Positions 7,924 to 57,230 of a stretch of DNA of 64,000 nucleotides are shown here, one piece after another; positions within the stretch are counted from its first letter, which is position 1, and each line of letters starts with the position of its first letter. Under the pieces are notes generated by a model that was given only the letters and a program-made list of their open reading frames with translations, ran no database searches and was not told where the DNA came from. This DNA is from Acidobacteriota bacterium (GTDB lineage Bacteria > Acidobacteriota > UBA6911 > RPQK01 > CBDAPI01), in NCBI GenBank assembly GCA_965205345.1, contig CBDBGQ010000039.1, forward strand, positions 19,600 through 83,599, in the 5' to 3' direction. The position numbers and the translations under genes were made by a program.

Positions 7924-8154
7924 TTTCACGTTCCACGAGGCTGCTCGGATCACTTTTCCCGACGGCCGGCGGGCCGCCACGCAGTCACTGTCGTTCCTGC
8001 CACTGTAGTTTCCTTGATTGTCGGCTTTCCTCGCCGCCTCCGGGCGGGTCCCGGAGATGATTCTGACCAGTCGCCGAGCCGGCAGAGGCGCGAATGCCAA
8101 TGAGCGCGCCAACGTGAAACGTGGAACGTGAAACGTGGAACGTGGAACGTGGAA
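7924..8154. repeat. inverted heptamer-array element X: (TTYCACG)2 - 175-nt core - (CGTGRAA)6
   Basis: Units read directly: TTTCACG TTCCACG at 7924-7937, and six CGTGRAA units at 8113-8154. The core shares GCAGTCACTGTCGTTCCTGC (7981-8000), CCTTGATTGTC (8012-8022) and ATGAGCGCGC with element Y at 42728-42894. Confidence 0.85.
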
Positions 8155-8158
8155 TTCC

Positions 8159-9037
8159 CTAAAGATGATCCCGGAAAAAGCGGAGAGGATTCAGGGATCG
8201 GCCATTGAGACGGACTTCATAATGAACATGAGGGCCGGTGGTCCGTCCTGTGGCTCCCACGTAGCCGATGACATCGCCCTTGCGGATCAACCGGCCCCGC
8301 TTGACCGCCAACTCCTTCAGGTGTCCGTAGCGGGTTGTCAGGCCGAAACGATGCTCGATTTTCACCAGCTTGCCGTAATTGAGCTGACGGCCCGCGAAAC
8401 GGACTACGCCGTCAGCCGTCGCAATCACCTTCGATCCGACCGGAGCCGAAAGGTCCAGGCCCGGATGAAAAGATCGATTGCCTGTAAAAGGATCGCGCCG
8501 CATCCCGAACCGACCGGAAGGGTACCCGATAACCGGCATGATTGAGGGCGTGGCACTGAGAAGGATGCTCCGGTCCTTGTAGTACTCCTGGAACTTGCGC
8601 AGCTCCTCGCGCACAGAAATACTCTTCTTCTCCAGAGAATTCAGCTGATCGAGCAGGGACTTCTCGTCGAAGGAGACTTCCAGATCGTTGGCTGCAGGAC
8701 CTCCGACGCCTCCCAGACCGTCCATGTCGAGACCCGTCATCACGCGCAGCTTCTGAGCCGCAACCTCCATCGACGAAAGACGCTCAGAGAGCTGCTTCGT
8801 CTTCACTCGAACCTTCTCATGATCGTTGTGAAGGAGCTCGAGCCGCTCCTGCACAGCTTCAAAGTCACTGCTGCGTTCCCACATCTGGAGATAGTGCACC
8901 GACAGAAGGCTCAAGACGAGCAGAAAGGCCCCGGAGCAGACCACCGCCAGATGCACCACAGAAGGCGCAATCGAGTACTGACGACTCGCCGGTTCCTGCA
9001 CTTGTGAGACAACTCTGCTCTGATCTTTTTTGCTCAT
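8159..9037 (-). CDS. M23 family metallopeptidase (murein DD-endopeptidase / EnvC-like, coiled-coil N-terminus)
   Basis: HPGLDLSAPVGSKVIATADGVV...GYVGATGRTTGPHVHYEVRLNG is the LytM/M23 signature. Confidence 0.9.
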   Translation of the reverse strand: MSKKDQSRVVSQVQEPASRQYSIAPSVVHLAVVCSGAFLLVLSLLSVHYLQMWERSSDFEAVQERLELLHNDHEKVRVKTKQLSERLSSMEVAAQKLRVMTGLDMDGLGGVGGPAANDLEVSFDEKSLLDQLNSLEKKSISVREELRKFQEYYKDRSILLSATPSIMPVIGYPSGRFGMRRDPFTGNRSFHPGLDLSAPVGSKVIATADGVVRFAGRQLNYGKLVKIEHRFGLTTRYGHLKELAVKRGRLIRKGDVIGYVGATGRTTGPHVHYEVRLNGRSLNPLRFFRDHL

Positions 9038-9114
9038 CGGTCACACAGGGAAACTAGAGTCAGAATACGCGGTAGTATAGTAGTCTAACTGGATTCATGT
9101 CAAGAAGATAGAGG

Positions 9115-9129
9115 TGGTGGAGGCGGTGG
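9115..9129 (-). repeat. 15-bp duplicate of the tmRNA 3' end (putative distal att site)
   Basis: TGGTGGAGGCGGTGG at 9115-9129 is identical to 13561-13575, the reverse complement of the ssrA acceptor/CCA end, and is in the same orientation. Confidence 0.6.
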
Positions 9130-9228
9130 CTACCCCATTGTTCTCTTAACTTACTGAGAACGATAGGCCTCGGCTTATGCGGAGTTTCTAGATACCCCCA
9201 AATGTACCCCCAATGCATAGCCGCTTAG

Positions 9229-9543
9229 ACTGATGGGCCGGGGAAAGCTGGCATTGCGCTGACGACACATTACCTGAACGAGGCGCTGAGGTTGTTCAGT
9301 GCTGGCGCTATTAGCCCAGAGCTGGTACGGGCCCAAAAGTTGCTGGCCTGGCTCCAGGAACGTCGGAAAAAAGAGATCACTTTGGTGGAGTTATATCGCT
9401 TTGGCCCAAATGAAATTAGAGACGCAAAGACAGCCCGGGCAGCCATGGCAATTCTGGAGAAACATGGATGGGCAATTAGCTTGGAAAACGGGGCTGACTT
9501 TCAAGGCATCAGACGGAGAGAAGCCTGGAGGATCAGAGAATGA
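9229..9543 (+). pseudogene. 3' fragment of a mobile-element replication protein (DUF3987 / P4 primase-helicase-like C-terminal winged helix)
   Basis: The frame is open from the stop at 9226-9228 and there is no plausible full-length N-terminus. The sequence ...HYLNEALRLFSAGAISPELVRAQKLLAWLQERRKKEITLVELYRFGPNEIRDAKTARAAMAILEKHGWAI resembles the C-termini of island-borne DUF3987 proteins (recognised from memory, not searched). Confidence 0.45.
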
Positions 9544-10031
9544 GCTCACCGCGTTTTACCTTTGACCTGGAGGGCGAGCTTCAAAACTTAGAAAGTGAAG
9601 TTGCGAATCCTGCGAATCCTGCGAATCGTGACCATAACATTCGCAACATTCGCAGCCAGGCGGATCTGAATTTGAAAGATAACTCGGGTCATATCACCCA
9701 GGACGATCATTCTTGGCGGAACTTTTACCCGGACCTGGCCCCGGCAGACTTTGAGATCACAGAGACAACCGGAGGCATCGCCGGACGAAAGATCAACGGA
9801 ACGATGGTCGGCACCGTTGGGTTCTTTATTCCCTGGGGGATGCTGGAAAAGGGACCACCACCACCGACTAACAGGAAGAGTCCGACACGGGCAGAGGGGG
9901 GCTTCTCAAGGCTTCACATTCCGAACCAAACCAACCCCGGCAAGGTGGATGTTTGGAGGTGTGGCGAGAGGGTGGATCCACCCCAGCTCAAATTCTGGTT
10001 TGTGAAAACAGTAAAGAGGGAGTGGACATAG
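9540..10031 (+). CDS. hypothetical protein (island remnant)
   Basis: 163-aa ORF with an ATGA overlap to the preceding fragment. It contains in-frame 9-nt repeats (ANPANPANR, NIRNIR). No family recognised, and coding status is uncertain. Confidence 0.3.
   Translation: MSSPRFTFDLEGELQNLESEVANPANPANRDHNIRNIRSQADLNLKDNSGHITQDDHSWRNFYPDLAPADFEITETTGGIAGRKINGTMVGTVGFFIPWGMLEKGPPPPTNRKSPTRAEGGFSRLHIPNQTNPGKVDVWRCGERVDPPQLKFWFVKTVKREWT
9602..9653. repeat. iteron-like 9-mers: 3x TGCGAATCN followed by 2x inverted AACATTCGC
   Basis: Read directly: TGCGAATCC TGCGAATCC TGCGAATCG at 9602-9628, and AACATTCGC AACATTCGC at 9636-9653. GCGAAT and ATTCGC are reverse complements. Confidence 0.7.
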
Positions 10032-10413
10032 GAGTGACCGCAGAAACCGGCATCCTCGGACCTAGAGGAAGTCGTAGCCGAGAGCTTGTTGACCAGCGGG
10101 ACTTGGGCCTTTTTGGCTGCCCCCCAGGAGCCCTTCCTGCCGAATCAATCGGTTCAGGTCGCCGAAGAGCTTCAGCTTGGGGGGCTCATAAGGCTTGCGG
10201 GGCATGGGCTAAGAATACCCGAGCCTGGCCAGGGTCACAAGGTGGCACAGGTGCCAGAGCAGTGATGATGATGAGGGAACAGCAACTGACCACCTGAAGC
10301 GATCATTGAGTAAGGACAAGTCATGCTGGGTTCCGGAAGACACCGGCCTCATGGACAGACCTTACCTCATGGATGGAATTACATAGAAGAGCTCAGAAGG
10401 AGGAAAACACTGG

Positions 10414-10725
10414 ATGAGATGTGAAGCCCAGAGCAAGCAAAGCGGCAACCGTTGCAAGCGTAGCTCTATCCCCGGGGGTACGGTCTGCTCCATGCATGGT
10501 GGTAAAACACCGGCTGTCATTGCCGAACGTTCCGAGATGGCAACCATGGCCCTGAAAATGGGTGATCTGTGCCAACGAGTTCAGTTCGGCACGGTTGATA
10601 ACCGTGCCCTACGAACGGCAAGCTGCCAATCGCAGGTTCGGCAACAGGCTCATCTTTCACTTTCCTCCTCGAAGATGGGTATTTATGGCGAGAGACCGGA
10701 TGATGTTATATTGAACTTTACTTGA
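10414..10725 (+). CDS. hypothetical protein with HGGxSTG-like cysteine/HGG motif (mobile-element associated)
   Basis: N-terminus CEAQSKQSGNRCKRSSIPGGTVCSMHGGKTP fits the C-x(8-10)-C-x(10)-C-x2-HGG pattern of phage/island HGGxSTG-type proteins. AGGAGG RBS upstream. Confidence 0.4.
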   Translation: MRCEAQSKQSGNRCKRSSIPGGTVCSMHGGKTPAVIAERSEMATMALKMGDLCQRVQFGTVDNRALRTASCQSQVRQQAHLSLSSSKMGIYGERPDDVILNFT

Positions 10726-10846
10726 AAGACAAAAGATTTCAACAATATTTGCCCCGTTCCTGTAGGTGGATGGGTAAGCTAGCCACGAGTTTCCCAGAGC
10801 CGGTTTTTATTGCCCCGGGGTACCCTGCAGAGTAGATTAGGAAGCA

Positions 10847-13315: not shown

Positions 13316-13318
13316 GCC

Positions 13319-13560: not shown

Positions 13561-13920
13561 TGGTGGAGGCGGTGGGAATCGAACCCACGTCCGGAAATGT
13601 TCCACAGTAGACTCTACATGCTTATCTGGTTTCGGGTTATCCGTCGCAAAGGCATAAGAAACCAGCAAATAGGCCCAGACGACGGTTCCCCAGTAAGGTT
13701 CTCACGATTCCCCTGGAGAAACCGGGAATCACGAAAAGCCCGTTGAATCGACGCCCCACCTTCTGCCACGGGCAGCAAAAAACGGAACGGCTGCGTTTAT
13801 TACGCAGCTAGTGCTAACTGATCGTTGGCAGTTATGCTTTTGACCGTAGATTAACGAGGGTACGGACACCTCGGCATGCATCTACCGCTTCAACTACTTC
13901 CGTCGAAGCCGGTCGCCCCC
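13561..13920 (-). ncRNA. ssrA: transfer-messenger RNA (tmRNA)
   Basis: 5' end GGGGGCGACCGGCTTCGACGG. 3' end GTGGGTTCGATTCCCACCGCCTCCACCA (T-arm plus acceptor plus CCA). Internal tag reading frame GCC AAC GAT CAG TTA GCA CTA GCT GCG TAA TAA encodes ANDQLALAA**. Confidence 0.92.
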
Positions 13921-14089
13921 GATCTCAGTTGCTATTGTAATACAAATCCCCGGTAAGCGGGGATTTCAAATTGCTGAGTGGCCAAGATGCTGACAAACTG
14001 ACAGCTGCCAATTGGCATGGGAAAATGTAGGAGTGGGTTCCATCCCGCGATCTGATCGGGATCGGACCCTGATCACGACATAACAAGCA

Positions 14090-14117
14090 GAACCCAGAAC
14101 CCAGAACCTAGAACCCA
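14090..14117. repeat. heptamer array (GAACCYA)4 ending 3 nt before an ATG
   Basis: GAACCCA GAACCCA GAACCTA GAACCCA ccc ATG, read directly. Confidence 0.9.
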
Positions 14118-14120: not shown

Positions 14121-15353
14121 ATGTTCCTACTCTGGTTTTCTCTTCTGGTCCTCGCACTGGCCGAGGGGATGAACTCTCTTCGAGGCGGCTTGCGCCAGTT
14201 CCGGTGTTGGATGGCCGCACCAGGAGGACCTGGAGAAGAAGACGGGAAACGTTTTTCACCGGTGGTCGTGATCGTGCCGTGCCGGGGCCTGGATCAGGGA
14301 TTCAAGAAAAATATGGAGGCTTTGTTCGGCCTTGAGTGTCCGGACTTCCGACTCATTTTTGCAGTCGACTCCGAATCCGACCCGGCTATTGCGAAGCTGG
14401 TGAGTCTCCAGCAGCAGCATGCCGGCACAACTTCCGAGATTCTGACCGCTGGACCCGCCAGGGACTGTGGTCAGAAAGTGCACAACCTGCTCTTCGCAGT
14501 GGATCACCTGCCGCTGGAGACCCGGTCTCTGGTCTTGGCAGACTCGGATATCAGACCACTTCCTGACTGGTTGAGCGCCCTGACCCGAACACTGGGGCGG
14601 GAAGGGACCGGACTGGCCTCCGGCTTTCGCTGGTACCTGCCTTCTGAAAAGACCTCCTTTGGCTCTCTCCTCCGCTCTGCCTGGAACGGAGGAATCCTCT
14701 CGATGATGAGCCCAGAGGACAGTTTTTTCGGGTGGGGAGGGGCTCTGGCCTGCTCCCGGCAGGTCTTCGATGAGTGCGGGGCCAGGGAATCCTGGAAGGG
14801 CTCCCTCAGTGACGACTACTCTCTATCCGCTGCAGTTCGGGCTCACGGCTACAAGATCCGCTTTGTTCCAAGGGCCCTGAGTCTCAGCCACGGCACCTGT
14901 TCACTCGGAGAACTGCTCCGCTGGAGTGCTCGACAGACGGCGATTACTCGTGTTTATCACCCGAACCTCTGGAGGCTGACCTGGGTGTCACAGTTCCTTT
15001 ATGGAGCTGCCGTCTGGGCAACTCCCGTTCTGATCTGTCTCCCCGGTTCCTTTTCCCAGCTCACCCTGATCGACCGGTTGGTTCTGGGAACAATGGGATT
15101 GCTGGTTGCCGGGCTCAGCGGCGTGAAAGCCCAGCTTCGCCTCAACGCCGTGGCCGCCATTCTCTCCGAGAAGTCAGATCAGATTCTGCGCCACGCCTGG
15201 TTTTACAGACTGGCACCTCCACTCTGCAACCTGGTGACTCTCCTGGCGCTGGCTCGTTCACTGTTCTGCAGGGAGATTGAGTGGCGGGGGATTCGGTACC
15301 AGATGCTTTCGCCGGCCGAAACCAGGATCCTTTCCCGGTCGCAGCCAGAATGA
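14121..15353 (+). CDS. glycosyltransferase family 2/21 (ceramide glucosyltransferase / HpnI-like)
   Basis: VVVIVPCRGLDQG...LADSDIRPLPDWL...GELLRWSARQ motifs and multiple C-terminal TM helices. Confidence 0.75.
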   Translation: MFLLWFSLLVLALAEGMNSLRGGLRQFRCWMAAPGGPGEEDGKRFSPVVVIVPCRGLDQGFKKNMEALFGLECPDFRLIFAVDSESDPAIAKLVSLQQQHAGTTSEILTAGPARDCGQKVHNLLFAVDHLPLETRSLVLADSDIRPLPDWLSALTRTLGREGTGLASGFRWYLPSEKTSFGSLLRSAWNGGILSMMSPEDSFFGWGGALACSRQVFDECGARESWKGSLSDDYSLSAAVRAHGYKIRFVPRALSLSHGTCSLGELLRWSARQTAITRVYHPNLWRLTWVSQFLYGAAVWATPVLICLPGSFSQLTLIDRLVLGTMGLLVAGLSGVKAQLRLNAVAAILSEKSDQILRHAWFYRLAPPLCNLVTLLALARSLFCREIEWRGIRYQMLSPAETRILSRSQPE

Positions 15354-16392: not shown

Positions 16393-17420
16393 CTCGGACG
16401 ATTCTCCCTGGTATGGCCCTGTTGCTTCTGCTCTTCATTTACGCAGGAGCGTGGCTGGCTCCTGTCATTGCCCCCTACTCGCACCGGCATCAGTTCAGAG
16501 ATTTCGCCTTGGCACCTCCTTCCCGAATAGTATTTCAGAGCCAGACTGGAGCCCGGGGTCCGGCCTTTCACCCCATCCGGCGTCTGGACCTGAACCCCAC
16601 TTATGAACAAACCGGTGTTCTGGTTCCCATCCGCTTTTTCGTGAAGTCGGAAGCTTACACTTGGATGGGCCTGGAATTCCAAACTCATCTGTTCGGCTCC
16701 AGCGATGAGGCACAGCCCCTGTTTTTGCTTGGAACTGACGAACTGGGTCGAGACATCTTCTCCCGGATCCTGATTGGTTCGAGATACTCGTTGAGCATTG
16801 GTCTGGCTGCCATCTTCCTCACACTGGTCCTGGGCGTGCTGATGGGATCCCTGTCCGGTTATTTCGAAGGGTGGACTGATCGAATCGTGATGCGCATCTC
16901 TGATCTTTTCCTGTCCATACCGGGGCTCTTTCTGGTCCTGGGGATGCGGGCCATTTTCCCGGACCTGAGCGGCCGGCTCGGCCTCTATGTACTGATCGTC
17001 GCTACCTTTACATTACTGGGCTGGGCCTCTGTTGCCCGGGTGGTTCGAGGCCAGGTTCTGTCCCTCAAACAACGGGAGCACGTTCTTTACGCTGTCTCCT
17101 GCGGGGCTTCCCATGCCCGGATCCTGCTCCGGCACATCCTCCCTTTCACCCGGAACTTTCTGTTGGTTCAGGGATCGGTTCTTCTGCCTGCGTACATCAT
17201 CGGAGAGGTCACACTCACCTTCCTCGGACTGGGAGTGCAGGAACCGGACGTCAGCTGGGGGAACCTGCTGCAGGACGCCGCCTCCCTGAGGGCCCTGAGT
17301 GACTTCCCCTGGCTCCTGGCACCGGCTCTGGTCACCCTGCTCTCGGTACTGGCTTTCAGTTACGTGGCCGACGAGCTGAAGCTGATCATGGATGAACAGC
17401 GGAGCCTGGTTGGGTTCTAG
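16389..17420 (+). CDS. ABC transporter permease (DppC/OppC-like)
   Basis: ATGA overlap with the upstream permease. LGTDELGRDIFSRILIGSRYSL is the OppC signature. The TAG stop (17418-17420) lies inside the first GGTTCTA repeat unit. Confidence 0.9.
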   Translation: MTRTILPGMALLLLLFIYAGAWLAPVIAPYSHRHQFRDFALAPPSRIVFQSQTGARGPAFHPIRRLDLNPTYEQTGVLVPIRFFVKSEAYTWMGLEFQTHLFGSSDEAQPLFLLGTDELGRDIFSRILIGSRYSLSIGLAAIFLTLVLGVLMGSLSGYFEGWTDRIVMRISDLFLSIPGLFLVLGMRAIFPDLSGRLGLYVLIVATFTLLGWASVARVVRGQVLSLKQREHVLYAVSCGASHARILLRHILPFTRNFLLVQGSVLLPAYIIGEVTLTFLGLGVQEPDVSWGNLLQDAASLRALSDFPWLLAPALVTLLSVLAFSYVADELKLIMDEQRSLVGF

Positions 17421-17452
17421 GTTCTAGGTTCTAGGTTCTGGGTTCTAGGTTC
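17413..17452. repeat. heptamer array (GGTTCTR)5.7, left half of an array split by the IS
   Basis: GGTTCTA x3, GGTTCTG, GGTTCTA, GGTTC, then the IS terminus. Confidence 0.9.
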
Positions 17453-18832
17453 GAGCTCTTGTCAATAGGTGTGGAAAAACATCAGGCGGCTTTCTCCTCC
17501 GGGACTTGGTTGACCGGGACTCCATTGACATATTTGGCGCCCTGGTAGACGTCTTTCATCAGCTCCGGTGCCTTCAACCGGCGGAATCGCTGCTCCGCCA
17601 CCAGCAGCATCTTCCAGATCACCGCCTGGGCGTTTTCCACTTTCTTGAATCGCTTGGCCGCGTCCGTTCGCAGCCGAAGAGCGGCAAACGGTGACTCCAC
17701 TGGATTGGTGGTTCGCAGATGCTGCCACTGCTTCTTTGGATAGCAGGTAAAAGGTCACCATCCGGTCCCAGTCCTGCTCGATTAGCTCAGCCGCCAGAGT
17801 CAGCCCTCGCTGCCGGCACCAGTGCTGAAAAACCTTCTTGAGTCGTTGTGCTTCTTCTCGAGTCTCGGCGTAAGGGATCTGCCGCAGGATCAGCAAGGCC
17901 GGCTTGTGCACTCGCTTAGGGAGCTTGGTCAGCAGGTTGACGATCCGATGATTCCAGCAGCGCTGCTCCTCGGCCTGGGGATAGACGTTGCGCAAAGCTC
18001 CCCAGATGCCCAGGTGGCCGTCTCCGATCACCAGCCGTGGACAGCCCATCCCCCGGCGCTTCAAGTCGCGCAGTACTTCCGACCAGCTCTGGGTCGATTC
18101 CCGATAGCCGCTCGTGACCGACACCACGGCTTTGCTTCCGTCACTTAAGGCGGCCAGCACCACCAGCAGGACTGCCTTTTCCTTCTCCAGACCCGCCTTG
18201 ACGTAGATTCCATCTACCCATAAATACACCACTTCCAGATCATTCAAGGGTCGACTCTGCCAGACCTCCCATTCGGCCTGCCACTGCTCTTTCAATCTGG
18301 CCACCGTGGAGGACGACAGGTGCGCCTTTTCCCCTAAAAGCCCTCTCAGAGCCAGATCAAAATCCCCCAGCGCCAGACCATGCAAGTACAGCTCAGGGAT
18401 CAGTTCTCGAACCTGCCGCGTCCGCTTGGCAAACAGGGGCAACACCCGACTTTCAAAGTGTTCCTCTAGATCCCGCACTCGAGGCCTTCGAACCTGGATC
18501 GTCCCCGAGCTCAGCGTCAGATGCCTCGGCTTCCCATATCCATTGCCATAGCCCGACGGAGCGTCCACGGCCCTTCGCCGCTCACTCTTACGCCGCCCTA
18601 ATAACTCCGTGACTTCCTCCTCCAGCAGCTCTTGAACCCAGCCTTGGATCTTCTCCCGCACCCAATCTTCCAGCTCCTCGAAACAAACTCTTGACTCGAC
18701 ACTTTCCTCAATGTTCTGCTTGCTCATGCGGTGTGTACTCCTTCCGTTGCGGGCCTTTCGGCCCTGGGTTTTAAATCAACCCGGAAGGATACTCACCGCC
18801 TATGCTATTTACACACCTTCTGATGGTAGCTC
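17453..18832 (-). mobile_element. IS256-family insertion sequence, copy 1 (1380 bp)
   Basis: Termini GAGCTCTTGTCAATAGGTGTGGAAA... and ...TTTACACACCTTCTGATGGTAGCTC form imperfect IRs of about 26-38 bp. 9-bp direct repeat TCTAGGTTC at 17444-17452 and 18833-18841. Identical in length to the copies at 33414-34793 and 59841-61220. Confidence 0.9.
17462..18727 (-). CDS. IS256/Mutator-family transposase, interrupted by a +1 frameshift (C-terminal part continues in ORF 17482..17700)
   Basis: The DDE region includes VIGDGHLGIWGAL...CWNHRIVNLL. After ...DWDRMVTFY the conserved continuation YPKKQWQHLRTTNPVESPFAALRLRTDAAKRF is in the +1 frame (the 72-aa ORF). Confidence 0.85.
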   Translation of the reverse strand: MSKQNIEESVESRVCFEELEDWVREKIQGWVQELLEEEVTELLGRRKSERRRAVDAPSGYGNGYGKPRHLTLSSGTIQVRRPRVRDLEEHFESRVLPLFAKRTRQVRELIPELYLHGLALGDFDLALRGLLGEKAHLSSSTVARLKEQWQAEWEVWQSRPLNDLEVVYLWVDGIYVKAGLEKEKAVLLVVLAALSDGSKAVVSVTSGYRESTQSWSEVLRDLKRRGMGCPRLVIGDGHLGIWGALRNVYPQAEEQRCWNHRIVNLLTKLPKRVHKPALLILRQIPYAETREEAQRLKKVFQHWCRQRGLTLAAELIEQDWDRMVTFYLLSKEAVAASANHQSSGVTVCRSSAANGRGQAIQESGKRPGGDLEDAAGGGAAIPPVEGTGADERRLPGRQICQWSPGQPSPGGESRLMFFHTY

Positions 18833-18880
18833 TCTAGGTTCTGGGTTCTGGGTTCTGGGTTCTGGGTTCTGGGTTCTGGG
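18833..18880. repeat. heptamer array (GGTTCTG)6, right half of the split array
   Basis: TCTA then six GGTTCTG units (18837-18878), read directly. Confidence 0.9.
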
Positions 18881-18910: not shown

Positions 18911-18938
18911 GTCAACCTTCCACCTTTAACTTTCAACC
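18911..18938. repeat. degenerate heptamer array GTCAACC TTCCACC TTTAACT TTCAACC
   Basis: Read directly. The reverse complement reads GGTTGAA-type units. It ends 6 nt before the stop of the M24 peptidase gene. Confidence 0.7.
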
Positions 18939-23493: not shown

Positions 23494-23495
23494 AG

Positions 23496-23681
23496 TTCCA
23501 CGTTCCACGTTCCACGTTTCTGCGAACAACCGGGGCATCGTCTGTGGACCGAACAGCGACAGATAGTGGAGCAGATGGTACGAGTCCAAGCACCGATCGC
23601 GGTCTGAGGCCCTCAGTCCAACCTTCCCAACCTAGAAACGTGAAACGTGAAACGCGGAACGTGGAACGTGGAACGTGGAAC
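23496..23681. repeat. inverted heptamer-array element W: (TTCCACG)3.5 - 114-nt core - (CGTGRAA)6.5
   Basis: The left array at 23496-23520 starts 2 nt after the polA stop. The right array is at 23635-23681. The core contains ATCGCGGTCTGAGGCCC (23596-23613), shared with elements Y and Z. Confidence 0.85.
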
Positions 23682-31052: not shown

Positions 31053-31080
31053 GTTACTGTTAATGGTTAATGGTTATAGG
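31053..31080. repeat. heptamer array GTTACTG TTAATGG TTAATGG TTATAGG
   Basis: Starts at the first base after the GT2 stop codon. Read directly. Confidence 0.75.
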
Positions 31081-32340: not shown

Positions 32341-32412
32341 CCGTTACCTGTTACCGATTGTTAGTTGGATGTTGAAAACGGCAAGAACCGGAAACTAGCA
32401 ACCAGTAACCGG
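32341..32412. repeat. inverted heptamer arrays CCGTTAC CTGTTAC ... GAACCGG AAACTAG CAACCAG TAACCGG
   Basis: Begins directly after the transposase stop. The left part (32341-32356) and right part (32385-32412) are in mutually inverted orientation around a spacer of about 28 nt. Confidence 0.65.
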
Positions 32413-33054: not shown

Positions 33055-33087
33055 GATACGCCGAGTAGTTGCGCTCGCTCCACTCGC

Positions 33088-38771: not shown

Positions 38772-38806
38772 TAACCTAGAACCCAGAACCTAGAACCCAG
38801 AACCCA
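38772..38806. repeat. heptamer array TAACCTA GAACCCA GAACCTA GAACCCA GAACCCA
   Basis: Lies between convergent stops (38749 and 38809) and ends 2 nt from the rmlC-like stop. Confidence 0.9.
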
Positions 38807-42714: not shown

Positions 42715-42727
42715 GGGGGCCCCATTG

Positions 42728-42894
42728 TTCCACGTTTCACGTTCCACGTTCCACGTTGCGCAGTCACTATCGTTCCTGCTAATCGGCTTCCCTTGATTGT
42801 CACCTTTCTCCGGCGGGGCTTTTGAACATCACGCCGGGCGGTCGCGGCCCGAGGCCCCTCCCACTTTCATGAGCGCGCAACGTGGAACCTGGAA
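42728..42894. repeat. inverted heptamer-array element Y: (TTYCACG)4 - 125-nt core - CGTGGAA CCTGGAA
   Basis: Arrays at 42728-42755 and 42881-42894. The terminal stems TTCCACGTTGCGC...GCGCAACGTGGAA are complementary. Core boxes lie at 42760-42779, 42791-42801, 42841-42857 and 42862-42888 and are shared with X, W and Z. Confidence 0.85.
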
Positions 42895-42949
42895 CCTCCC
42901 TCCGCCCCCCAAGTACAATACGCCAGCACATGGAACGCGGTGTCCCATC

Positions 42950-44605: not shown

Positions 44606-44640
44606 CGTGGAACCTGGAACCTGGAACGTGGAACCTGGAA
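44606..44640. repeat. heptamer array CGTGGAA CCTGGAA CCTGGAA CGTGGAA CCTGGAA
   Basis: Read directly. A mixed array that links the CGTGGAA and GAACCYN unit types. Confidence 0.9.
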
Positions 44641-44770
44641 CTCCAGGAGCACGAAGGGACCCTTTGAGGTAAAATTTGGGCTTGCCTCTCGAGACATGAT
44701 CGGCTATCAGTGTTCGGGACGCGTCACTGAAACCATGTAGTAGTTTCCTCCACATCTCGGAGAAAAGACC

Positions 44771-45790: not shown

Positions 45791-45797
45791 GATTCAG

Positions 45798-45968
45798 TTC
45801 CACGTTTCACGTCTTTCTCTGGGATCTGAAATCGAGAGGGCCGCGATTCGGACAGTTTCTTCTCACTTGGTTCAAGGGTTAAAGGTCAACAGTCGAAAGT
45901 CGAATTTCCCAACTCGGCAAAGCGTTGCCAAACCAGGTGACGTGGAACGTGAAACGTGAAACGTGGAA
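45798..45968. repeat. inverted heptamer-array element V: (TTYCACG)2 - core with internal NGTYNAA array - (CGTGRAA)4
   Basis: 45798-45811 reads TTCCACG TTTCACG. An internal GGTTCAA GGGTTAA AGGTCAA .. AGTCGAA AGTCGAA run lies at about 45869-45905. 45941-45968 has four CGTGRAA units ending 4 nt before ATG 45973. Confidence 0.8.
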
Positions 45969-45972
45969 CCGA

Positions 45973-48313: not shown

Positions 48314-48348
48314 GGTTGACCGTGGAACGTGGACCGTGGACCGTGGAA
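48314..48348. repeat. heptamer array GGTTGAC CGTGGAA CGTGGAC CGTGGAC CGTGGAA
   Basis: Lies between the convergent stops of coxL-like (48306) and hpf-like (48359). Confidence 0.9.
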
Positions 48349-48358
48349 CGGTGTTGCG

Positions 48359-48670: not shown

Positions 48671-48766
48671 TTCCCTTCGTGAAGCACCTGCCAACTACTA
48701 TAACTGATTCCCGGACCCAGAATGGGATGATCGCGTCACACATTGACAAGGGTCAATGACAACAGA

Positions 48767-48801
48767 CGTGGAACGTGGAACCTGGAACCTGGAACGTGCA
48801 A
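48767..48801. repeat. heptamer array CGTGGAA x2, CCTGGAA x2, CGTGCAA, abutting a stop codon
   Basis: The last unit ends at 48801, and the stop codon of the gluconolactonase-like gene is at 48802-48804. Confidence 0.9.
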
Positions 48802-49893
48802 TTAGGTAATGTGCGCCCCCTGGGCTTCCACGTACACGGCGTAGAGCGACTGGCTGGCGGTCATGAACAGACGGTTGCGCTTGGTGCCTCCAAAGCACAC
48901 GTTGCCGCAGATCTCGGGCAGGCGAATCTGACCGATGCGTTCTCCGTCCGGGGCAAAGACGTGCACTCCATCATAGCCGTCTCCGACCCAGCCGGCGCTG
49001 GCCCAGATGTTTCCATCCCTGTCTGCCCGTATGCCGTCGGCCAACCCGGTCTTACCCTCCAGTTCCATGGACGTGAACTCCCTTCCCCCGGAGAGCCTGA
49101 CCGAGTCGATCACATCCCAGACCTTGATGTTCCGAGCGGATCCCGTGTCACTCACATAGAGCTTCCGATAGTCAGGAGAGAAGCACAGCCCGTTCGGCTT
49201 TTCGATCTCGTCGGTCACCTTGCCAAGCTTCCCATTCTGCGGATCGATCCGGTAGATGGCCTCTTTGATCTCGAGCACGCTCTTCTTTCCTTCGTAATGG
49301 ATCATGCTTCCGTAACCGGGATCGGTAAACCAGAGACCTCCGTCCGGGTGAACGATCGCATCATTGGGAGCATTCAGCGGCTTCCCTTCCCAGTTGTCGG
49401 CCAGAACCGTAAAGGATCCATCGTACTCGTAGCGAACCACTCGACGATTTCCATGCTCACAGGAGATCTGGCGGCCTCGGAAATCGAAAGTGTTCCCGTT
49501 GCTGTTTCCAGAAGGGTGACGGAAGGTGCTGACCTGTCCATTCTCTTCCAGCCAGCGCAGCTGAACATTGTTGGGAATGTCACTCCAGACCAGGTAACGG
49601 CCAACTCCGTTCCAGGCAGGACCCTCCGACCACAACATTTTCTTGCTGTGGTAAAGACGCTGGATGGGAGTGTTCCCGAGTTTGTATTTCGAGAAGCGCT
49701 GATCCAGGACGACGATGTCGGGATCCGGATAGCGCACCGGCCCAGCGTTGGGGCTGTACCGATCCTGAACGAGTCCGGCTCCGGCAAGTCCGGCGGCTCC
49801 CGCCACAAAGGAGCGGCGACCCATCCGTACTCTTGCAGGCCGCAGTTCCGGGTTTTCTTTTGCCACTCTACTCTCTGTCAATGGGTTCTTCAT
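48802..49893 (-). CDS. SMP-30/gluconolactonase/LRE family protein with Tat signal
   Basis: RRSFVAGAAGLAGAGL twin-arginine signal and beta-propeller motifs (GLCFSPDYRKLYVSDTG, ADGIRADRDGNIW). Confidence 0.85.
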   Translation of the reverse strand: MKNPLTESRVAKENPELRPARVRMGRRSFVAGAAGLAGAGLVQDRYSPNAGPVRYPDPDIVVLDQRFSKYKLGNTPIQRLYHSKKMLWSEGPAWNGVGRYLVWSDIPNNVQLRWLEENGQVSTFRHPSGNSNGNTFDFRGRQISCEHGNRRVVRYEYDGSFTVLADNWEGKPLNAPNDAIVHPDGGLWFTDPGYGSMIHYEGKKSVLEIKEAIYRIDPQNGKLGKVTDEIEKPNGLCFSPDYRKLYVSDTGSARNIKVWDVIDSVRLSGGREFTSMELEGKTGLADGIRADRDGNIWASAGWVGDGYDGVHVFAPDGERIGQIRLPEICGNVCFGGTKRNRLFMTASQSLYAVYVEAQGAHIT

Positions 49894-50000
49894 CCTTGGG
49901 CTCCTTGATTGGACGGGGTCGGGGTTCGCTTTCTCCAGGTTGCGATCAGGGCCAGCACCCCTTCACCCCCAGCACCGGAGGCTGCTCATCTCTTCGCTTT

Positions 50001-50042
50001 AAGTTGAAGGTTAAAGGTTGAAGGTTGAAGGTTCAAGGTTGA
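50001..50042. repeat. heptamer array AGTTGAA GGTTAAA GGTTGAA GGTTGAA GGTTCAA GGTTGAT
   Basis: Read directly. Lies 60 nt upstream of the polB start. Confidence 0.9.
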
Positions 50043-52420: not shown

Positions 52421-52481
52421 AACCAGCAGGTCTGAAGAATGGGAGGAGGGCACCGGGCCAGTGGTTTGCTTGCACCCGTCC

Positions 52482-52562
52482 GTAGGGCACGGTTATCAAC
52501 CGTGCCGAACTGAACTCGCTGGCAGCCTGCTACGTTCGGCACGCCAGATTGGCGTGCCCTAC
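52482..52562. repeat. REPIN-like doublet of GTAG-headed palindromes in inverted orientation
   Basis: GTAGGGCACGGttatcaaCCGTGCC (52482-52506) and GGCACGCCagattGGCGTGCCCTAC (52538-52562). GAAC/GTTC flanks extend the pairing. Confidence 0.75.
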
Positions 52563-55284: not shown

Positions 55285-55313
55285 GACAGAACGGCATGGC
55301 GTCAGCGTGCCGT
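55285..55313. repeat. REP-like palindrome GACAGAACGGCATGgcgtcagCGTGCCGT
   Basis: 8-bp stem (one mismatch) with a 7-nt loop. A near-identical copy lies at 55813-55841 and a degenerate half-copy at about 53480-53505. Confidence 0.7.
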
Positions 55314-55625: not shown

Positions 55626-55812
55626 GATTGAAAGCCTCCCCTGACTAAATGTTTGTAAGAAAAGCTGTGGAAGATGTTTGTACAGAGGGGATGTGAAAGG
55701 CAAGAGAATTGTGAGTTCTCTGGGAAAAATCGTACCGGCTTGTGTTCTGCGTCACGGTCTCGGACTTGAGCCCGGTAGAGTAGGCGCCTCAGGCTGCAAT
55801 CAGGGATGTGCG

Positions 55813-55841
55813 GACAGAACGGCACGGCGTAAGCGTGCCGT
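55813..55841. repeat. REP-like palindrome GACAGAACGGCACGgcgtaagCGTGCCGT
   Basis: Second copy, same orientation as 55285-55313. Together the two copies flank the small secreted-protein gene. Confidence 0.7.
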
Positions 55842-55873
55842 TAGCGGCACTCAGGTGTCAGGACCGCGTTGAG

Positions 55874-55914
55874 GGTCGACCGTTGACGTGAAACGTGAAA
55901 CGTGGAACGTGGAA
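55874..55914. repeat. heptamer array GGTCGAC CGTTGA CGTGAAA CGTGAAA CGTGGAA CGTGGAA
   Basis: Ends 1 nt before the stop codon (55916-55918) of the VKOR-DsbA gene. Confidence 0.9.
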
Positions 55915-55915
55915 C

Positions 55916-57130
55916 TTAGTTCCCGAGGAGCTCCTCAATCAGCGCCTCCAGCGCCGCCGCCCTCACATCCGGCACCCGCCGATTGTTCAAAAAGACGCTG
56001 GGAGTCGAGTTGATATCCAGCTCGATCCCCATCTGGATATCCGCGGCCACCCGCCCGGCAACAGCCTCGCTGGACAGGTCCTCAGCAAAGCGCTCCGTGT
56101 CCAGCCCGGCGCTGGCCGCCAGCTTGCTAAAGACGTTGGGATCGGTGCCCATGTCCTGCAGGAAGAGCACATCATGAAAGTCCCAGAACTTTCCCTGCAG
56201 CCGGGCTGCTTCTCCCGCCCGAGCCGCTTCGCAGGCCCGGTCATGCAGCTCCCGTGTCATGATCGGATTGCAGCCCTTGCCCAGTGGAAAGTGAACGAAG
56301 ACGAGACGCAGCTGCTCGGAGTAGTGCTCCTCCAGATGCCGTGCCTGGAAAGCGAAATCCTTGCAGTAGGGGCACTGAAAGTCACTGAAGACAACCATCT
56401 GCAGCAGAGCATCCTCAGAACCCAGAGACGGGTGATCGGCCCTGATCGCGACAGGCTGCAGCGGACTGGACTGATAGGCAGTCAGGAGTTCTGCCCCATT
56501 GATTTGCGGAGCTTTGCCCTCAAAGCGGACGAACTCCACCAGGACCCACTGGTAGATGACAATTCCGACCAGCAGCGGCAGCAGCAGGGCCACCAGTCTC
56601 CAGGAACTGAGCCGGGACTCGGGATCGTCGGAACTCCGCAGAAAACGGCCGGACCGGACGATCCCTCGAGCCGCGCCCGACCAGGAGAGCCCCGAGGCCA
56701 TTTTCAGTCCTGTCAGCAAAGCCAGATTGAGCGCGTTGATGAGAGCACAGGCCGGACAGAAGGGCCAGGTTCCAGAAACGAGCCCGACCAGCAGATAGAC
56801 GCTCACCACAGCACCGATACCACTGACGGCGATAGCGGCGATCATCCCCTCTCTACGGAAATCATCTCCCAGGAGAGAGGTCAACCAGACCAGGGTCAAA
56901 AGGAACCCGAAATAGACCAGTCCCCAGCCCGCCAGAGGGATGCCCATCTGGATGGAGCCCTGGCTGTGCAGTGTCCGGTCACAGCTCGCACCTAAGAGAG
57001 TCGAGCAGGCATCCCGCCCCACCTCCCAGGCTCCCAGCAGCCCCAGGTGGCGGTAAAGGAGATACCCGGAGAGCAGCCCTCCAATCAGGATCAGGATTGT
57101 GCTGAGTCGTAATGCAGTTCGCTGGCTCAT
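55916..57130 (-). CDS. vitamin K epoxide reductase (VKOR) domain fused to a DsbA-like thioredoxin domain
   Basis: N-terminal 4-5 TM segments with loop cysteines (DACSTLLGASC) and CPAC. C-terminal VVFSDFQCPYCKDF thioredoxin-fold CxxC. Confidence 0.85.
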   Translation of the reverse strand: MSQRTALRLSTILILIGGLLSGYLLYRHLGLLGAWEVGRDACSTLLGASCDRTLHSQGSIQMGIPLAGWGLVYFGFLLTLVWLTSLLGDDFRREGMIAAIAVSGIGAVVSVYLLVGLVSGTWPFCPACALINALNLALLTGLKMASGLSWSGAARGIVRSGRFLRSSDDPESRLSSWRLVALLLPLLVGIVIYQWVLVEFVRFEGKAPQINGAELLTAYQSSPLQPVAIRADHPSLGSEDALLQMVVFSDFQCPYCKDFAFQARHLEEHYSEQLRLVFVHFPLGKGCNPIMTRELHDRACEAARAGEAARLQGKFWDFHDVLFLQDMGTDPNVFSKLAASAGLDTERFAEDLSSEAVAGRVAADIQMGIELDINSTPSVFLNNRRVPDVRAAALEALIEELLGN

Positions 57131-57187
57131 TCTTTTCCGACCTCCAACCCCCGTGACAGGCTAAAGAGCTTACTGTTTCAGCTCGGA

Positions 57188-57230
57188 AGTGGAAAGTGGA
57201 AAGTGGGAGGTCGAAAAGTCGAAAGTGGGA
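57188..57230. repeat. heptamer array AGTGGAA AGTGGAA AGTGGGA GGTCGAA (A) AGTCGAA AGTGGGA
   Basis: Read directly. There is a one-nucleotide phase slip at 57216. Confidence 0.85.

Follow-up and report, generated by a model that had tools for sequence, protein, structure and literature searches.

Tandem heptanucleotides close to genes are known from Xanthomonas (GGGAATC) and Nostoc (GGGGAYT), where they lie 0-50 bp from open reading frames, obey a strand rule at starts and stops, occur solo or as inverted pairs, and comprise about four units (Rehm et al., 2015, PMC4692102). The TAACTGA repeats of Beggiatoaceae have a comparable anatomy, and CspB binds heptamers, one protein each (MacGregor, 2015, PMC4679880). 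Both papers cite Mrazek 2007. Here we analyze heptamer arrays in a 64-kb stretch of DNA (the window) from an uncultured Acidobacteriota MAG lineage. The original prediction fairly named the cyanobacterial STRR as an analogue; it also knew of no annotated feature class for such arrays in this kind of genome, and in fact the two papers above had already described one. That the arrays are very dense, lineage-specific intergenic heptanucleotide simple-sequence repeats within this described class is well supported.

Results

The window contains about 22 period-7 arrays, with none in shuffles and none at periods 5, 6, 8 or 9. The original prediction is borne out. Tandem Repeats Finder returned 17 period-7 rows at its coordinates. 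Our own scan found 15 arrays scoring at least 12 in the window, against a mean of 0.0 and a maximum of 0 in 100 Markov-1 shuffles; in its comparison of periods, 13 arrays of period 7 stood against 0 each at periods 5, 6, 8 and 9. A family-specific scan gave 12 runs where 0.28 were expected. Arrays occur in 16 of the window's 28 gaps of at least 30 nt and take up 698 of its 6754 intergenic nucleotides (10.3%); they are common, but to say that they fill most gaps was an overstatement. Such arrays also turn up in assemblies produced independently by many projects from short and from long reads, and are therefore not the assembly artefacts that had been considered as an alternative.

The predicted coordinates check out with three caveats (Table 1). 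The run at 18911-18938 is present but degenerate, with three units only. The supposed single tandem array at 32341-32412 in fact combines two or three GTTACC units with their inverted complement, and 17413-17452 and 18833-18880 are one array of ~79 nt split by an IS256-family insertion. Three further arrays had been missed (42875-42897, 7935-7950 and 45797-45811).

Table 1. Heptamer arrays and adjoining features in the window. The R-type strand is the strand reading NTTYNAC.
Coordinates	Strand	Feature	Context
7314-7898	-	ECF sigma gene	start 36 nt from array 7935..7950
7935..7950	+	two units, TTTTCAC GTTCCAC	R-type on +; 36 nt from ECF sigma start; left partner of array 8111-8155
8111..8155	-	6.3 units CGTGGAA/CGTGAAA on +	R-type on -; 3 nt after M23 peptidase stop
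8159-9037	-	M23 peptidase gene	stop adjoins array 8111..8155
14088..14117	-	4.3 units CAGAACC on + (GGGTTCT on -)	R-type, G4-capable; 3 nt before ATG 14121 of a glycosyltransferase gene
17413..17452	+	GGTTCTA/GGTTCTG, left half of ~79-nt array	overlaps TAG of ABC permease gene, whose end (17420) lies inside the array
17453..18832	-	IS256-family insertion sequence, 1380 nt	splits ~79-nt array; one of 3 near-identical copies; 9-bp target duplication TCTAGGTTC
18833..18880	+	GGTTCTG x6.9, right half of split array	yields G3N4 tracts
18911..18938	+	degenerate CTTCCAC CTTTAAC TTTCAAC	6 nt from M24 peptidase stop; orientation ambiguous or exception
18945-20126	-	M24 peptidase gene	stop near run 18911..18938
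23495..23518	+	3.4 perfect GTTCCAC units	begins 1 nt past polA stop (23493); 5' stem arm
23635..23681	-	6.4 units GAAACGT/GGAACGT on +	49 nt upstream of ECF sigma ATG 23731; 3' stem arm
31053..31080	+	GTTACTG/GTTAATG units	0 nt past stop 31052, GT2 glycosyltransferase
32341..32365	+	two or three GTTACC-type units	0 nt past stop 32340
32395..32412	-	inverted complement CCAGTAACCGG of run 32341..32365	21 nt from coaE stop
32434-33054	-	coaE	stop 21 nt from run 32395..32412
38773..38806	-	4.9 units AACCYAG on + (GGGTTCT-type on -)	2 nt after epimerase stop
38809-39276	-	epimerase gene	stop adjoins array 38773..38806
42727..42757	+	4.4 units GTTCCAC/GTTTCAC	12 nt from corrected ADH start 42714 (gene on -)
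42875..42897	-	~3 units CGTGGAA/CCTGGAA on +	just 5' of phosphodiesterase start ~42911 (homology-supported)
44606..44641	-	4.9 mixed units CGTGGAA/CCTGGAA on +	30 nt after stop 44575, 129 nt before ATG 44771; orientation exception relative to nearest CDS; first unit and upstream CCAGGTTCC form a 9-bp hairpin
45797..45811	+	two units, GTTCCAC GTTTCAC	6 nt past stop 45790; 5' arm of 16-20-bp stem
45940..45969	-	4.3 units ACGTGGA/ACGTGAA on +	3 nt before ATG 45973 of xanthine dehydrogenase-like (XDH) large subunit; 3' stem arm
48314..48350	-	~4.5 units CGTGGAA/CGTGGAC on +	between convergent stops XDH 48306 and hpf 48359 (52-nt gap); R-type on hpf sense strand
48766..48801	-	4.7 units on +	0 nt from stop of gluconolactonase-like gene 48802-49893 (-)
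50001..50042	-	5.7 units GGTTGAA/GGTTAAA on + (CTTCAAC on -)	R-type on -; ~60 nt upstream of probable PolB start
55886..55915	-	4.3 units ACGTGAA/ACGTGGA on +	0 nt from stop of VKOR-DsbA gene 55916-57130 (-)
57187..57230	-	degenerate AGTGGAA/AGTCGAA on +	56 nt from start 57130; orientation exception

Gene calls were checked by Pfam and homology, and three start codons were corrected (alcohol dehydrogenase, ADH, to 42714, phosphodiesterase to near 42911 and DNA polymerase B, PolB, to near 50103). With these curated boundaries, the median distance from array to CDS end in the window is 3 nt; as predicted, most arrays lie 0-3 nt from a CDS end and they fall mostly within 0-13 nt, the majority after stop codons. 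They are also all non-coding, as had been claimed, no supported CDS in the window containing one. Compared with uniform placement within each gap, the adjacency is significant (Fisher p = 3e-7).

Orientation is fixed as well. Of 18 cases, 16 have (NTTYNAC)n on the strand leading away from the CDS (16:2, p = 0.0013), in agreement with the prediction that the sense strand reads TTYCACG past stops and CGTGRAA before starts. These two rules reduce to a single symmetric one, NTTYNAC running outward from the abutted CDS, and therefore every two-array gap reads (GTTCCAC)n ... (GTGGAAC)n. An annotation-free test of neighbouring inverted pairs found 29 in R-to-F order and 1 in F-to-R order. For a mirrored control heptamer, an unrelated unit, the corresponding ratio was 19:1. 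With at least 120 stretches, this control matches or exceeds CGTGGAA in frequency across phyla, so the sharing of CGTGGAA between phyla is nothing special. Arrays of the control unit gave no sign of growth polarity.

The unit types of the window arrays form one mutational network in which T2 and T3 are invariant (95-100%) and A6 reaches 87%. The predicted single mutational family is thereby supported, though part of it is weak because 14 possible alignments per unit make 3-substitution distances non-significant. Copy number peaks at about four units with no decay with length, and variant units are grouped in blocks within arrays. Comparison of orthologous intergenic regions, as proposed with the original prediction, revealed arrays gained and lost, copy numbers changed and units replaced: among genomes at 76-89% protein identity, both copy number and dominant variant differ. 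The 57187-57230 site, for example, has GAAAGTG in the window genome, GAAAGTT in the relative L088 and GAAAGTC in L089. The array at 44606..44641 is found in the window genome only (L089, L091 and L097 lack it in the orthologous gap) and lies inside a ~90-nt insertion missing in three relatives; the XDH/hpf array is likewise present in the window genome alone. Arrays also stand at the 45940..45969 site in L088, L089 and L090, at the 50001..50042 site in five of six related genomes, and at the 48766..48801 site in L089. L088 has an array at this last site too, but of period 8, with a GGAAC core kept and the other 3 nt varying. Of the compared gaps, B and E bear arrays in 4-5 of the 6 genomes. 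At the 55886..55915 site, L089 has a 6-unit array and L088 and L091 have none. Over the same syntenic 22 kb, array density drops from the window genome to near zero in L097 and L152, and the arrays are shared with the closest relatives only. Since close relatives that possess these genes have almost no arrays, the arrays are dispensable for those genes. These comparisons show that the arrays are made and remodelled by slipped-strand mispairing.

Paired arrays can form stems of ~29 bp in the polA gap (MFE -86 kcal/mol, z = -5.4) and of 16-20 bp in the XDH gap (45797-45811 with 45940-45969, z = -2.9). Orthologous stems in L089 (z = -5.4) and L090 (z = -4.6) have non-homologous loops of different lengths; the orthologous pair in L088 and L097 folds no better than shuffles, so pairing is not consistently maintained. 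Single arrays also fold no better than shuffles and are not terminator hairpins (terminators had been suggested), and canonical hairpins with T-runs are not enriched (17 found, 15.7 expected). Because both orientations are needed, the proposed 5'/3' mRNA pairing or RNase III-type sites are possible in the 5 of 16 array-bearing gaps that have both, and not elsewhere, where one orientation is present. Nor do hairpins explain the orientation rule, since the opposite order (F...R) pairs equally well.

Discussion

Our best guess, to which we give a probability of roughly 0.45, is that the arrays act as leaders and trailers at the RNA level, made by slippage and under selection as RNA. The arrays are assumed to be transcribed; if promoters lie inside the gaps, as we also assume, an mRNA would begin with a GUGGAAC-type leader and end with a GUUCCAC-type trailer. 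A single array would then be a weakly structured spacer RNA at the outermost UTR edge. On one read-through transcript, the trailer of one gene and the leader of the next would form a 16-30-bp stem that buries the region just 5' of the start codon; this stem could insulate the downstream gene against read-through or, alternatively, be cleaved as double-stranded RNA.

One unit family, two invariant positions, the GGAAC core of the period-8 array and the mode at about four copies fit a specific factor or active spreading better than selected slippage. Such a factor might be a sequence-specific protein that recognizes a TTY..AC / GT..RAA core at 7-nt intervals, the arrays being polar platforms at gene boundaries. 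It could bind double-stranded DNA in the manner of ribbon-helix-helix proteins, or single-stranded RNA or DNA as cold-shock or S1-like OB-folds do. For ribbon-helix-helix proteins the targets are contiguous heptads or 8-bp boxes, as in the analogous cases of omega on its heptads and MetJ on the metbox, and OB-fold cold-shock or S1 domains cover ~7 nt. A dedicated reader or writer would account for the genome's single unit family (T2/T3 95-100%, A6 87%), the GGAAC retained in L088, the strict orientation (16:2; 29:1), the peak near four copies and the retention of arrays at given sites between genomes of 76-89% protein identity, and the heptamer binding of CspB (MacGregor, 2015, PMC4679880) is a precedent. 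Nevertheless, Pfam and homology point to no such protein among the window genes, most arrays are missing in close relatives, and the 3-substitution distances are non-significant with 14 alignments per unit. Moreover, a mirrored heptamer of arbitrary sequence is no less widespread and just as polar, and therefore period 7 and polarity need no unit-specific reader. We regard such a protein as unlikely, with a chance still worth taking seriously.

The arrays might instead be neutral microsatellites, generated by slippage in 7-nt registers, purged from genes by frameshift selection, and left at edges and in orientations where they are harmless. Mrazek, in 2007, is said to have proposed slippage favouring 7-nt registers. 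Arbitrary heptamer arrays are indeed pervasive (at least 120 control-unit stretches, with no growth polarity detected), arrays come, go and change units rapidly, and an insertion sequence has split one array with both flanking genes still intact. Yet orientation ratios of 16:2, 29:1 and 19:1 would need an unstated reason, and neutrality leaves unexplained the single unit family, the peaked length distribution and the arrays 3 nt 5' of start codons, where the ribosome-binding sequence is normally constrained. We consider neutrality quite unlikely.

It is improbable that the arrays are MITE remnants, with heptamer arrays as terminal inverted repeats, pairs as whole and solo arrays as half elements, and orientation set by outward-facing ends. 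Such elements would fit the near-exclusive R...F order (29:1), the ~90-nt insertion around 44606..44641 missing from three relatives, and the mosaic, array-bracketed internal modules common to gaps 7899-8158, 42715-42910 and 33055-33413. However, spacers between paired arrays are non-homologous across loci and orthologues, no target-site duplications were seen, and no matching transposase ends were found, those of the IS256 family being GAGCT.... Arrays 0-3 nt from CDS ends would remain unexplained, and the control-unit asymmetry in ~90 unrelated genomes would demand countless element families.

We give very little weight to Rho loading, in which C-rich, G-poor, unstructured (GUUCCAC)n after stops would serve as rut-like tracts ending transcripts. 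In its favour, GUUCCAC contains three C to one G, the arrays start 0-6 nt past stops, single arrays have little structure, and canonical intrinsic terminators are not enriched. A rut composition is not supported, however: the mean sense-strand (C-G)/(C+G) past stops is -0.01 where there is an array and -0.05 where there is none, sister units in like orientation (GGGTTCT, GTTAATG) are rich in G, rut sites are typically longer than these arrays (28-45 nt), and the control and Xanthomonas units place their G-rich strand at that position. Contingency repeats that switch neighbours on or off by copy-number change, the phase variation once suggested, are hardly credible because the flanking genes are housekeeping by Pfam and homology (polA, the uvrA region, coaE, hpf, dehydrogenases, glycosyltransferases, ECF sigma factors), most arrays lie 3' of stops, about half of the gaps bear one and the lineage is environmental and free-living, even though copy number varies among related genomes and heptanucleotide repeats 5' of hmw1A in Haemophilus influenzae behave in this way.

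The near-exclusive (U)n…(rcU)n order of inverted pairs may be new. In ORF adjacency, the symmetric strand rule, inverted pairs and about four units, the arrays of this Acidobacteriota lineage match the GGGAATC and GGGGAYT heptamers of Xanthomonas and Nostoc, and the cyanobacterial STRR and the TAACTGA repeats of Beggiatoaceae are related cases.

Period-7 arrays are abundant and abut coding sequences

Scanning the window against itself, we recovered 13–15 period-7 arrays of at least 2.7 units, and the excess was confined to this period (13 arrays, versus 0 at periods 5, 6, 8 and 9). Tandem Repeats Finder returned 17 period-7 rows whose positions match those originally predicted, and 15 arrays were counted in the window versus 0.0 across 100 Markov-1 shuffles, showing that the arrays are real. 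A scan for the GTTCCAC family, in which a run comprised at least two units each within one mismatch of GTTCCAC, gave 12 runs where 0.28 were expected. The statement that arrays fill most intergenic gaps proved too strong, as they are present in 16 of the 28 gaps of at least 30 nt and account for 10.3% of intergenic bases; their share is 44–100% in five short gaps. Some coordinates also had to be revised. The runs at 17413-17452 and 18833-18880 form one array split by an insertion sequence, the units at 18911-18938 are present as a degenerate three-unit run, and 32341-32412, taken for a single array, is instead a short GTTACC run plus an inverted complement. Three short arrays were added (see table). 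Among unseeded arrays of all units, copy number peaks at 3–4 and falls sharply at 5.

Once three start codons had been corrected, all 22 arrays lay outside Pfam- or homology-supported coding sequences (CDSs), with one (17413) overlapping a stop codon. The median distance from array to CDS end, using curated boundaries in the window, is 3 nt, and this adjacency departs strongly from uniform placement inside each gap (combined p = 3e-7), bearing out the claim that arrays abut CDS boundaries. By Pfam, the neighbours are ordinary housekeeping genes: ECF sigma factors, M23 and M24 peptidases, glycosyltransferases, ABC permeases, polA, uvrA, coaE, a zinc alcohol dehydrogenase, a phosphodiesterase, a xanthine-dehydrogenase-type subunit, hpf, a gluconolactonase-like protein, a family-B DNA polymerase and a VKOR-DsbA fusion. 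Taken as a whole, the original observation was confirmed, and its interpretation was supported in part.

All six frames of the arrays are free of stop codons, and their GTGGAAC strand supplies GTG codons, so mechanical ORF calls extend into them. Longest-ORF starts at 45925, 50018, 42747 and 42797 fall inside or upstream of arrays, which supply GTG and TTG codons, and shadow ORFs begin in arrays, for example 48775-49908(+) and 55895-56995(+). Arrays are thus a likely cause of mis-annotated starts in genomes of this kind, and three such starts were corrected here.

Positions of corrected, added and incidental features in the window
Feature	Position	Strand	Details
Split array	17413-17452 + 18833-18880		~79 nt, ~11 units; interrupted by 1380-nt IS256-family element with 9-bp target duplication TCTAGGTTC
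Short array, added	7935-7950
Short array, added	42875-42897
Short array, added	45797-45811
Relocated start, dehydrogenase	42714		homology and N-terminal sequence
Relocated start, phosphodiesterase	~42911		homology and N-terminal sequence
Relocated start, polymerase	~50103		homology and N-terminal sequence
IS256-family element, copy 1	17453-18832	-	9-bp target duplication, inside heptamer array
IS256-family element, copy 2	33414-34794	+	8-bp target duplication GGATTTCG
IS256-family element, copy 3	59834-61220	-	no target duplication
Different Transposase_mut gene	57419-58642	+
REP-like hairpin repeat GACAGAACGGCAYGGCGTMAGCGTGCCGT	55285-55313; 55813-55841		dispersed repeat; two copies in one gap
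Second REP-like hairpin repeat	10570-10618; 52476-52524		49 nt, 96% identity, inverted, 42 kb apart
Mosaic gaps	7899-8158; 42715-42910; 33055-33413		common modules, e.g. CAGTCACTRTCGTTCCTGC...CCTTGATTGTC; and CCCACTTTCATGAGCGCGCAACGTGGAAC (29 nt, 100% identical)
tmRNA gene	13561-13920	-	Rfam, 186 bits; tag peptide ANDQLALAA
Stretch without Pfam-supported gene	9038-10846		1.8 kb
9-nt tandem repeats	around 9602-9654		TGCGAATCC x2.9 and AACATTCGC x2.1, mutually part-complementary
Region of lower G+C	60001-64000		G+C 0.49 vs 0.56-0.60 elsewhere

Several other elements were seen along the way. The three copies of the 1380-nt IS256-family element (Transposase_mut) are 99–100% identical. The modules of the three mosaic gaps are bracketed by heptamer arrays and could be either a composite repeat or regulatory sequence common to the three; the relatives that we fetched yielded no copies. 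A GGGTTCT-type array lies between the tmRNA gene and the next gene. The region of lower G+C, just past the third insertion-sequence copy, holds a gene for an MBOAT acyltransferase and may have been acquired.

The units form one family

Aligned to GTTCCAC, the units of this lineage have TT at positions 2–3 in 95–100% of cases and A at position 6 in 87%, the remaining positions being 67–77% conserved. Mixed arrays connect the variants through single substitutions, in one chain GTTCCAC - GTTCCAG - GTTCTGG - GTTCTAG and in a second GTTCCAC - CTTCCAC - CTTCAAC - TTTCAAC - TTTCGAC. These chains uphold the view that all units belong to one family, but with 14 possible alignments per unit a distance of 3 substitutions is not significant by itself.

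Among GTDB species representatives, (CGTGGAA)4 occurs in 87 stretches from many phyla. As a control we used the mirrored unit AAGGTGC, and (AAGGTGC)4 occurs in at least 120 stretches, which indicates that heptamer arrays of arbitrary sequence are common in bacteria and that nothing special need be invoked when phyla share a unit. We accordingly rejected the occurrence of CGTGGAA in several phyla as a sign of horizontal transfer or of a unit-specific function. A search for phage association gave one viral contig match only.

Arrays read away from the coding sequence

In 16 of the 18 arrays that could be assigned, (NTTYNAC)n reads 5' to 3' away from the CDS that it abuts, whether at the start or the stop end (p = 0.0013). 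Both exceptions, the arrays at 44606 and 57187, are also the farthest from any CDS. The strand pattern first described, TTYCACG after stops and CGTGRAA before starts, is as observed; the two rules that it implied reduce to one symmetric rule that covers both. By this symmetry, a gap that holds two arrays has the sequence (GTTCCAC)n ... (GTGGAAC)n whichever strand is read. In the window, arrays lie as pairs in five gaps and are otherwise solo.

Inverted pairs can be counted independently of gene annotation. Taking neighbouring arrays of opposite orientation up to 300 nt apart, in fetched loci L001–L166 and L247–L366 plus the window, we found 29 GTTCCAC pairs in the order (GTTCCAC)n ... (GTGGAAC)n and 1 in the reverse order. 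The control unit AAGGTGC gave 19 pairs with the unit first and its reverse complement second, and 1 in reverse. The preference spans many phyla; near CDS ends, the orientation of the control unit split 46:18. We give a low probability to the reading in which the orientation rule is a general property of bacterial heptamer arrays. If it is, a conserved process would have to set it, either a mutational mechanism that is polar and linked to gene boundaries or widespread machinery for which tandem 7-mers mark the limits of genes or transcripts. No denser case would then be known for studying the rule than this Acidobacteriota lineage, in which about half of the intergenic gaps hold an array. The pairing asymmetry, strong in an annotation-free test, is the point that we would follow up.

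Three further regularities were considered and rejected. The orientation of CGTGGAA appeared conserved across phyla when pooled (41:14), but this was driven by Acidobacteriota, one Syntrophorhabdaceae MAG and Gemmatimonadota and was not significant by lineage; outside the Acidobacteriota lineage the signal comes mainly from the Syntrophorhabdaceae MAG (12:0) and Gemmatimonadota, other lineages being close to 50:50. A general rule that the G-rich strand faces outward was suggested by a count of 41:15, but this fell to 11:6 without stop-containing units, as the count arises largely because stop codons inside G-rich units delimit ORFs. Polar growth, with degenerate units on one side of the array, had little support in the main unit (49:30, where the adjacent CDS is a confounder) and none in the control.

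The Syntrophorhabdaceae MAG CAXXUO01 has an arrangement of its own. At positions 200–480 of its locus L021 an 83-nt sequence is repeated in tandem at least three times, a 4-unit GTTCCAC array and an invariant 50-nt spacer making up each copy, and the series ends in an inverted GTGGAAC array. Paired arrays in this MAG have an A-run outside on the left and a T-run outside on the right, and resemble oversized bidirectional terminators.

Array sites persist among relatives as their contents change

Judged by the protein of the xanthine dehydrogenase-like large subunit gene (XDH), the closest relatives are six Acidobacteriota MAGs with 75–89% identity and conserved gene order. A planctomycete host, hinted at by PSD1/PSCyt domains and sulfatases, was set aside on this basis. 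In JGI metagenomes the best relative was 67% identical, with nothing closer, and the window proteins were not on record. Period-7 arrays are present in four of the six relative loci and essentially absent from about 70 loci of more distant Acidobacteriota and Chloroflexota. Across the syntenic 22 kb, the window has about 11 arrays, L089 5–6, L088 4, L090 3, L091 1, and L097 and L152 about 0, indicating that the arrays are dispensable for the neighbouring genes. This drop from very high density to near zero between close relatives also provides a contrast with which comparative genomics might look for a gene responsible.

The comparison of orthologous gaps, proposed with the original prediction, gave a positive answer: in gaps B (upstream of XDH), D, E (upstream of the family-B polymerase gene), G and H, the position of the array is kept among L088–L091 and L097 as its length and sequence vary. 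Upstream of XDH, the stop is followed by a GTTCCAx run and the start preceded by a GTGGAAC-type run; the window, L088, L089 and L090 share this layout, and L097 has it in degenerate form. A GGTTGAA array precedes the polymerase gene in five of six genomes. Concerted change is seen in the array some 55 nt from where VKOR-DsbA starts, whose units read GAAAGTG (window), GAAAGTT (L088) and GAAAGTC (L089). Two arrays occur in the window only, one between XDH and its convergent neighbour hpf and the other after the phosphodiesterase stop, within a segment of about 90 nt that is missing from three relatives. Within arrays, variant units are grouped in blocks, for example (GAAACGT)3(GGAACGT)4. Collectively, this gain and loss, persistence, concerted change and block structure are marks of slipped-strand mispairing.

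Upstream of the hpf homologue in L088 (~14350–14480), the site of the window's period-7 array is occupied by a 13-unit period-8 array, GGAACNNN, in which GGAAC is conserved and the last 3 nt vary. It lies beside an insertion of about 1.6 kb that apparently encodes a transposase.

Paired arrays, not solo arrays, form stable stems

Solo arrays in the window were no more stable than their shuffles (z from -1.9 to +1.9). The pair in the polA gap folds into a stem of about 29 bp (-86 kcal/mol, z = -5.4 relative to shuffles), and the XDH gap pair into a 16–20-bp stem (z = -2.9). Orthologous XDH gaps gave z = -5.4 in L089 and -4.6 in L090, with short, non-homologous loops, and folded no better than shuffles in L088 and L097. 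The RNA-pairing role originally suggested would be possible only for paired arrays and not for solo arrays. Because its arms are repeats, such a stem remains paired when either arm slips. Pairing cannot set the orientation, however, since the opposite arrangement would pair equally well.

The terminator role was not borne out: hairpin-plus-T-run terminators of the canonical kind are not enriched in the window (17 vs 15.7 expected) and none is at an array, solo arrays fold no better than shuffles, and paired arrays in the window genome form long stems that lack the U-tract of an intrinsic terminator. An Rfam search of the window found the tmRNA only. The 7-nt units are contiguous and spacer-free, and so differ from CRISPR arrays, with their 23–47-nt repeats and unique spacers. 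Mimicry of ECF-sigma promoters (GGAAC ... CGT) was rejected from a reading of the sequence, since the spacing within arrays is 6, 13 or 20 nt and not 16–17. CsrA GGA sites were also rejected, since GTGAAAC and GAACCCA units have no GGA. Four or more tracts of at least three G on one strand occur in the GGGTTCT arrays at 14088, 18833 and 38773; the majority GTTCCAC/GTGGAAC arrays have GG only, on the inward strand. With no G-tracts on the outward GTTCCAC strand, G-quadruplexes would not explain the position of the main unit or its mode of about four units.

A proposed transcript-based model and its rivals

We favour, at a rough probability of 0.45, a model in which selection acts on the array-bearing transcript. 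Promoters inside the gaps would give an mRNA that begins with a GUGGAAC-type leader and ends with a GUUCCAC-type trailer. A solo array would then serve as weakly structured spacer RNA at the edge of the UTR, and in read-through RNA the trailer could pair with the leader of the next gene to form a long stem over the region just before the start codon. Neither this model nor any of the alternatives that follow explains why inverted pairs split 29:1 and 19:1.

A protein dedicated to reading 7-nt registers is an unlikely basis for the arrays. It is also rather unlikely that the arrays are purely neutral microsatellites, a reading that sits comfortably with the marks of slippage and the dispensability of the arrays, and less so with the pairing asymmetry. 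Decayed ends of transposable elements are improbable: the inverted layout is that of a MITE, but no target duplications were seen, internal sequence is shared by three gaps only and as mosaic modules, and the spacers between paired arrays lack homology between loci and between orthologues, which also led us to reject a MITE body inside the pairs. Even less credence attaches to Rho-loading tracts, as the sequence downstream of stops has a mean (C-G)/(C+G) of -0.01 with arrays and -0.05 without (range -0.48 to +0.39), and a rut-like composition is not supported. Phase variation, a role raised at the outset, is barely credible for arrays that mostly follow stop codons and whose neighbours are housekeeping genes and not surface, virulence or restriction-modification genes.

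Comparison with known heptamer repeats and other systems

Haemophilus influenzae reportedly carries heptanucleotide contingency repeats upstream of hmw1A, with double-stranded RNA processing said to be implicated. Those repeats likewise have period 7, lie in a 5' region and change copy number by slippage, but they concern single loci for surface adhesins in a host-adapted pathogen, whereas here about 22 arrays in 50 kb have housekeeping neighbours and mostly follow stops. The REP and BIME elements of enterobacteria and pseudomonads are palindromic 20–40-mers with a GTAG/CGTC head, spread by RAYT transposases. Like them, the arrays are short, numerous and extragenic, lie for the most part at the 3' ends of genes, would form read-through stems as inverted pairs and are targets of insertion sequences; unlike them, they consist of non-palindromic tandem 7-mers, their solo copies fold like shuffles, and neither a RAYT gene nor a Y1 transposase domain was seen among the window's proteins.

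Heptanucleotide repeats have reportedly been known since the cyanobacterial STRR (short tandemly repeated repetitive) sequences of Mazel in 1990. The arrays resemble these in being intergenic tandem heptanucleotides with multiple unit types per genome. The units differ, however, and STRRs are defined for heterocystous cyanobacteria and described without an orientation rule or a position flush with the CDS. We take the arrays to lie outside STRR in the strict sense, presumably sharing none of the STRR1-3 units, as their own units are GTTCCAC, GGTTCTR, CTTCAAC and others, and the relatives of the host are Acidobacteriota.

In marine Beggiatoaceae, some cyanobacteria and Bacteroidetes, TAACTGA repeats occur just upstream of starts, as 2–6 direct copies in sense orientation a few nt from the start codon, with 169 sets per genome, and S1, Csp and CsrA have been proposed as candidate binders (MacGregor, 2015; PMC4679880). 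They too are heptamer direct repeats with a unit found in distant phyla. TAACTGA, however, carries stop codons and lies mainly upstream of starts, and related heptamers are rare there, whereas the window's arrays are mostly after stops, come in many variants and commonly form inverted pairs. The same source (PMC4679880) summarizes Mrazek (2007), who ranked heptanucleotides first in abundance among the long simple repeats of many bacteria and proposed that they arise by polymerase slippage.

The closest match is the class described in Xanthomonas (GGGAATC) and Anabaena/Nostoc (GGGGA(C/T)T), whose heptamers are 89–93% intergenic, lie 0–50 bp from ORFs and sometimes overlap a stop codon (Rehm, 2015; PMC4692102). 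In that study, the repeat lay on the coding strand where it followed a stop and on the non-coding strand where it preceded a start, occurred solo or as inverted pairs with a preference for four units, and was found at sites shared by related species with varying length and sequence, beside genes of all functional classes; most repeats were transcribed, and no function was found (PMC4692102). The anatomy of the arrays had thus been published. In our searches, neither the GTTCCAC unit nor repeats of this kind in Acidobacteria were the subject of any paper, and no literature after 2016 explained the heptamer-repeat class.

All the defining features of the class that we tested (Mrazek, 2007; Rehm, 2015) are present in the window, namely tandem non-coding units, a strand rule near ORFs, solo or inverted-pair layout and conserved position. 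We are therefore confident that the arrays are a new, very dense member of the class of intergenic heptanucleotide repeats, made and reshaped by slippage. As in Xanthomonas and Nostoc, they are tandem 7-mers beside ORFs with a symmetric strand rule, solo or paired, of about four units, at conserved sites. The likeness to Xanthomonas extends to the window's GGGTTCT arrays (14088, 17413/18833 and 38773), which are G3N4 tracts whose G-rich strand faces outward from the CDS. Unlike in Xanthomonas, the main unit, GTTCCAC, has no G-tracts on its outward strand, and the host belongs to the Acidobacteriota. That a unit not of the G-quadruplex type obeys the same edge and orientation rule, with the same mode of about four units, weakens the G-quadruplex explanation proposed for Xanthomonas. 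Relative to X. campestris, where about 117 intergenic regions were analysed, the window's approximately 0.4 arrays per kb would be an order of magnitude denser, by a rough extrapolation that takes the window as typical.
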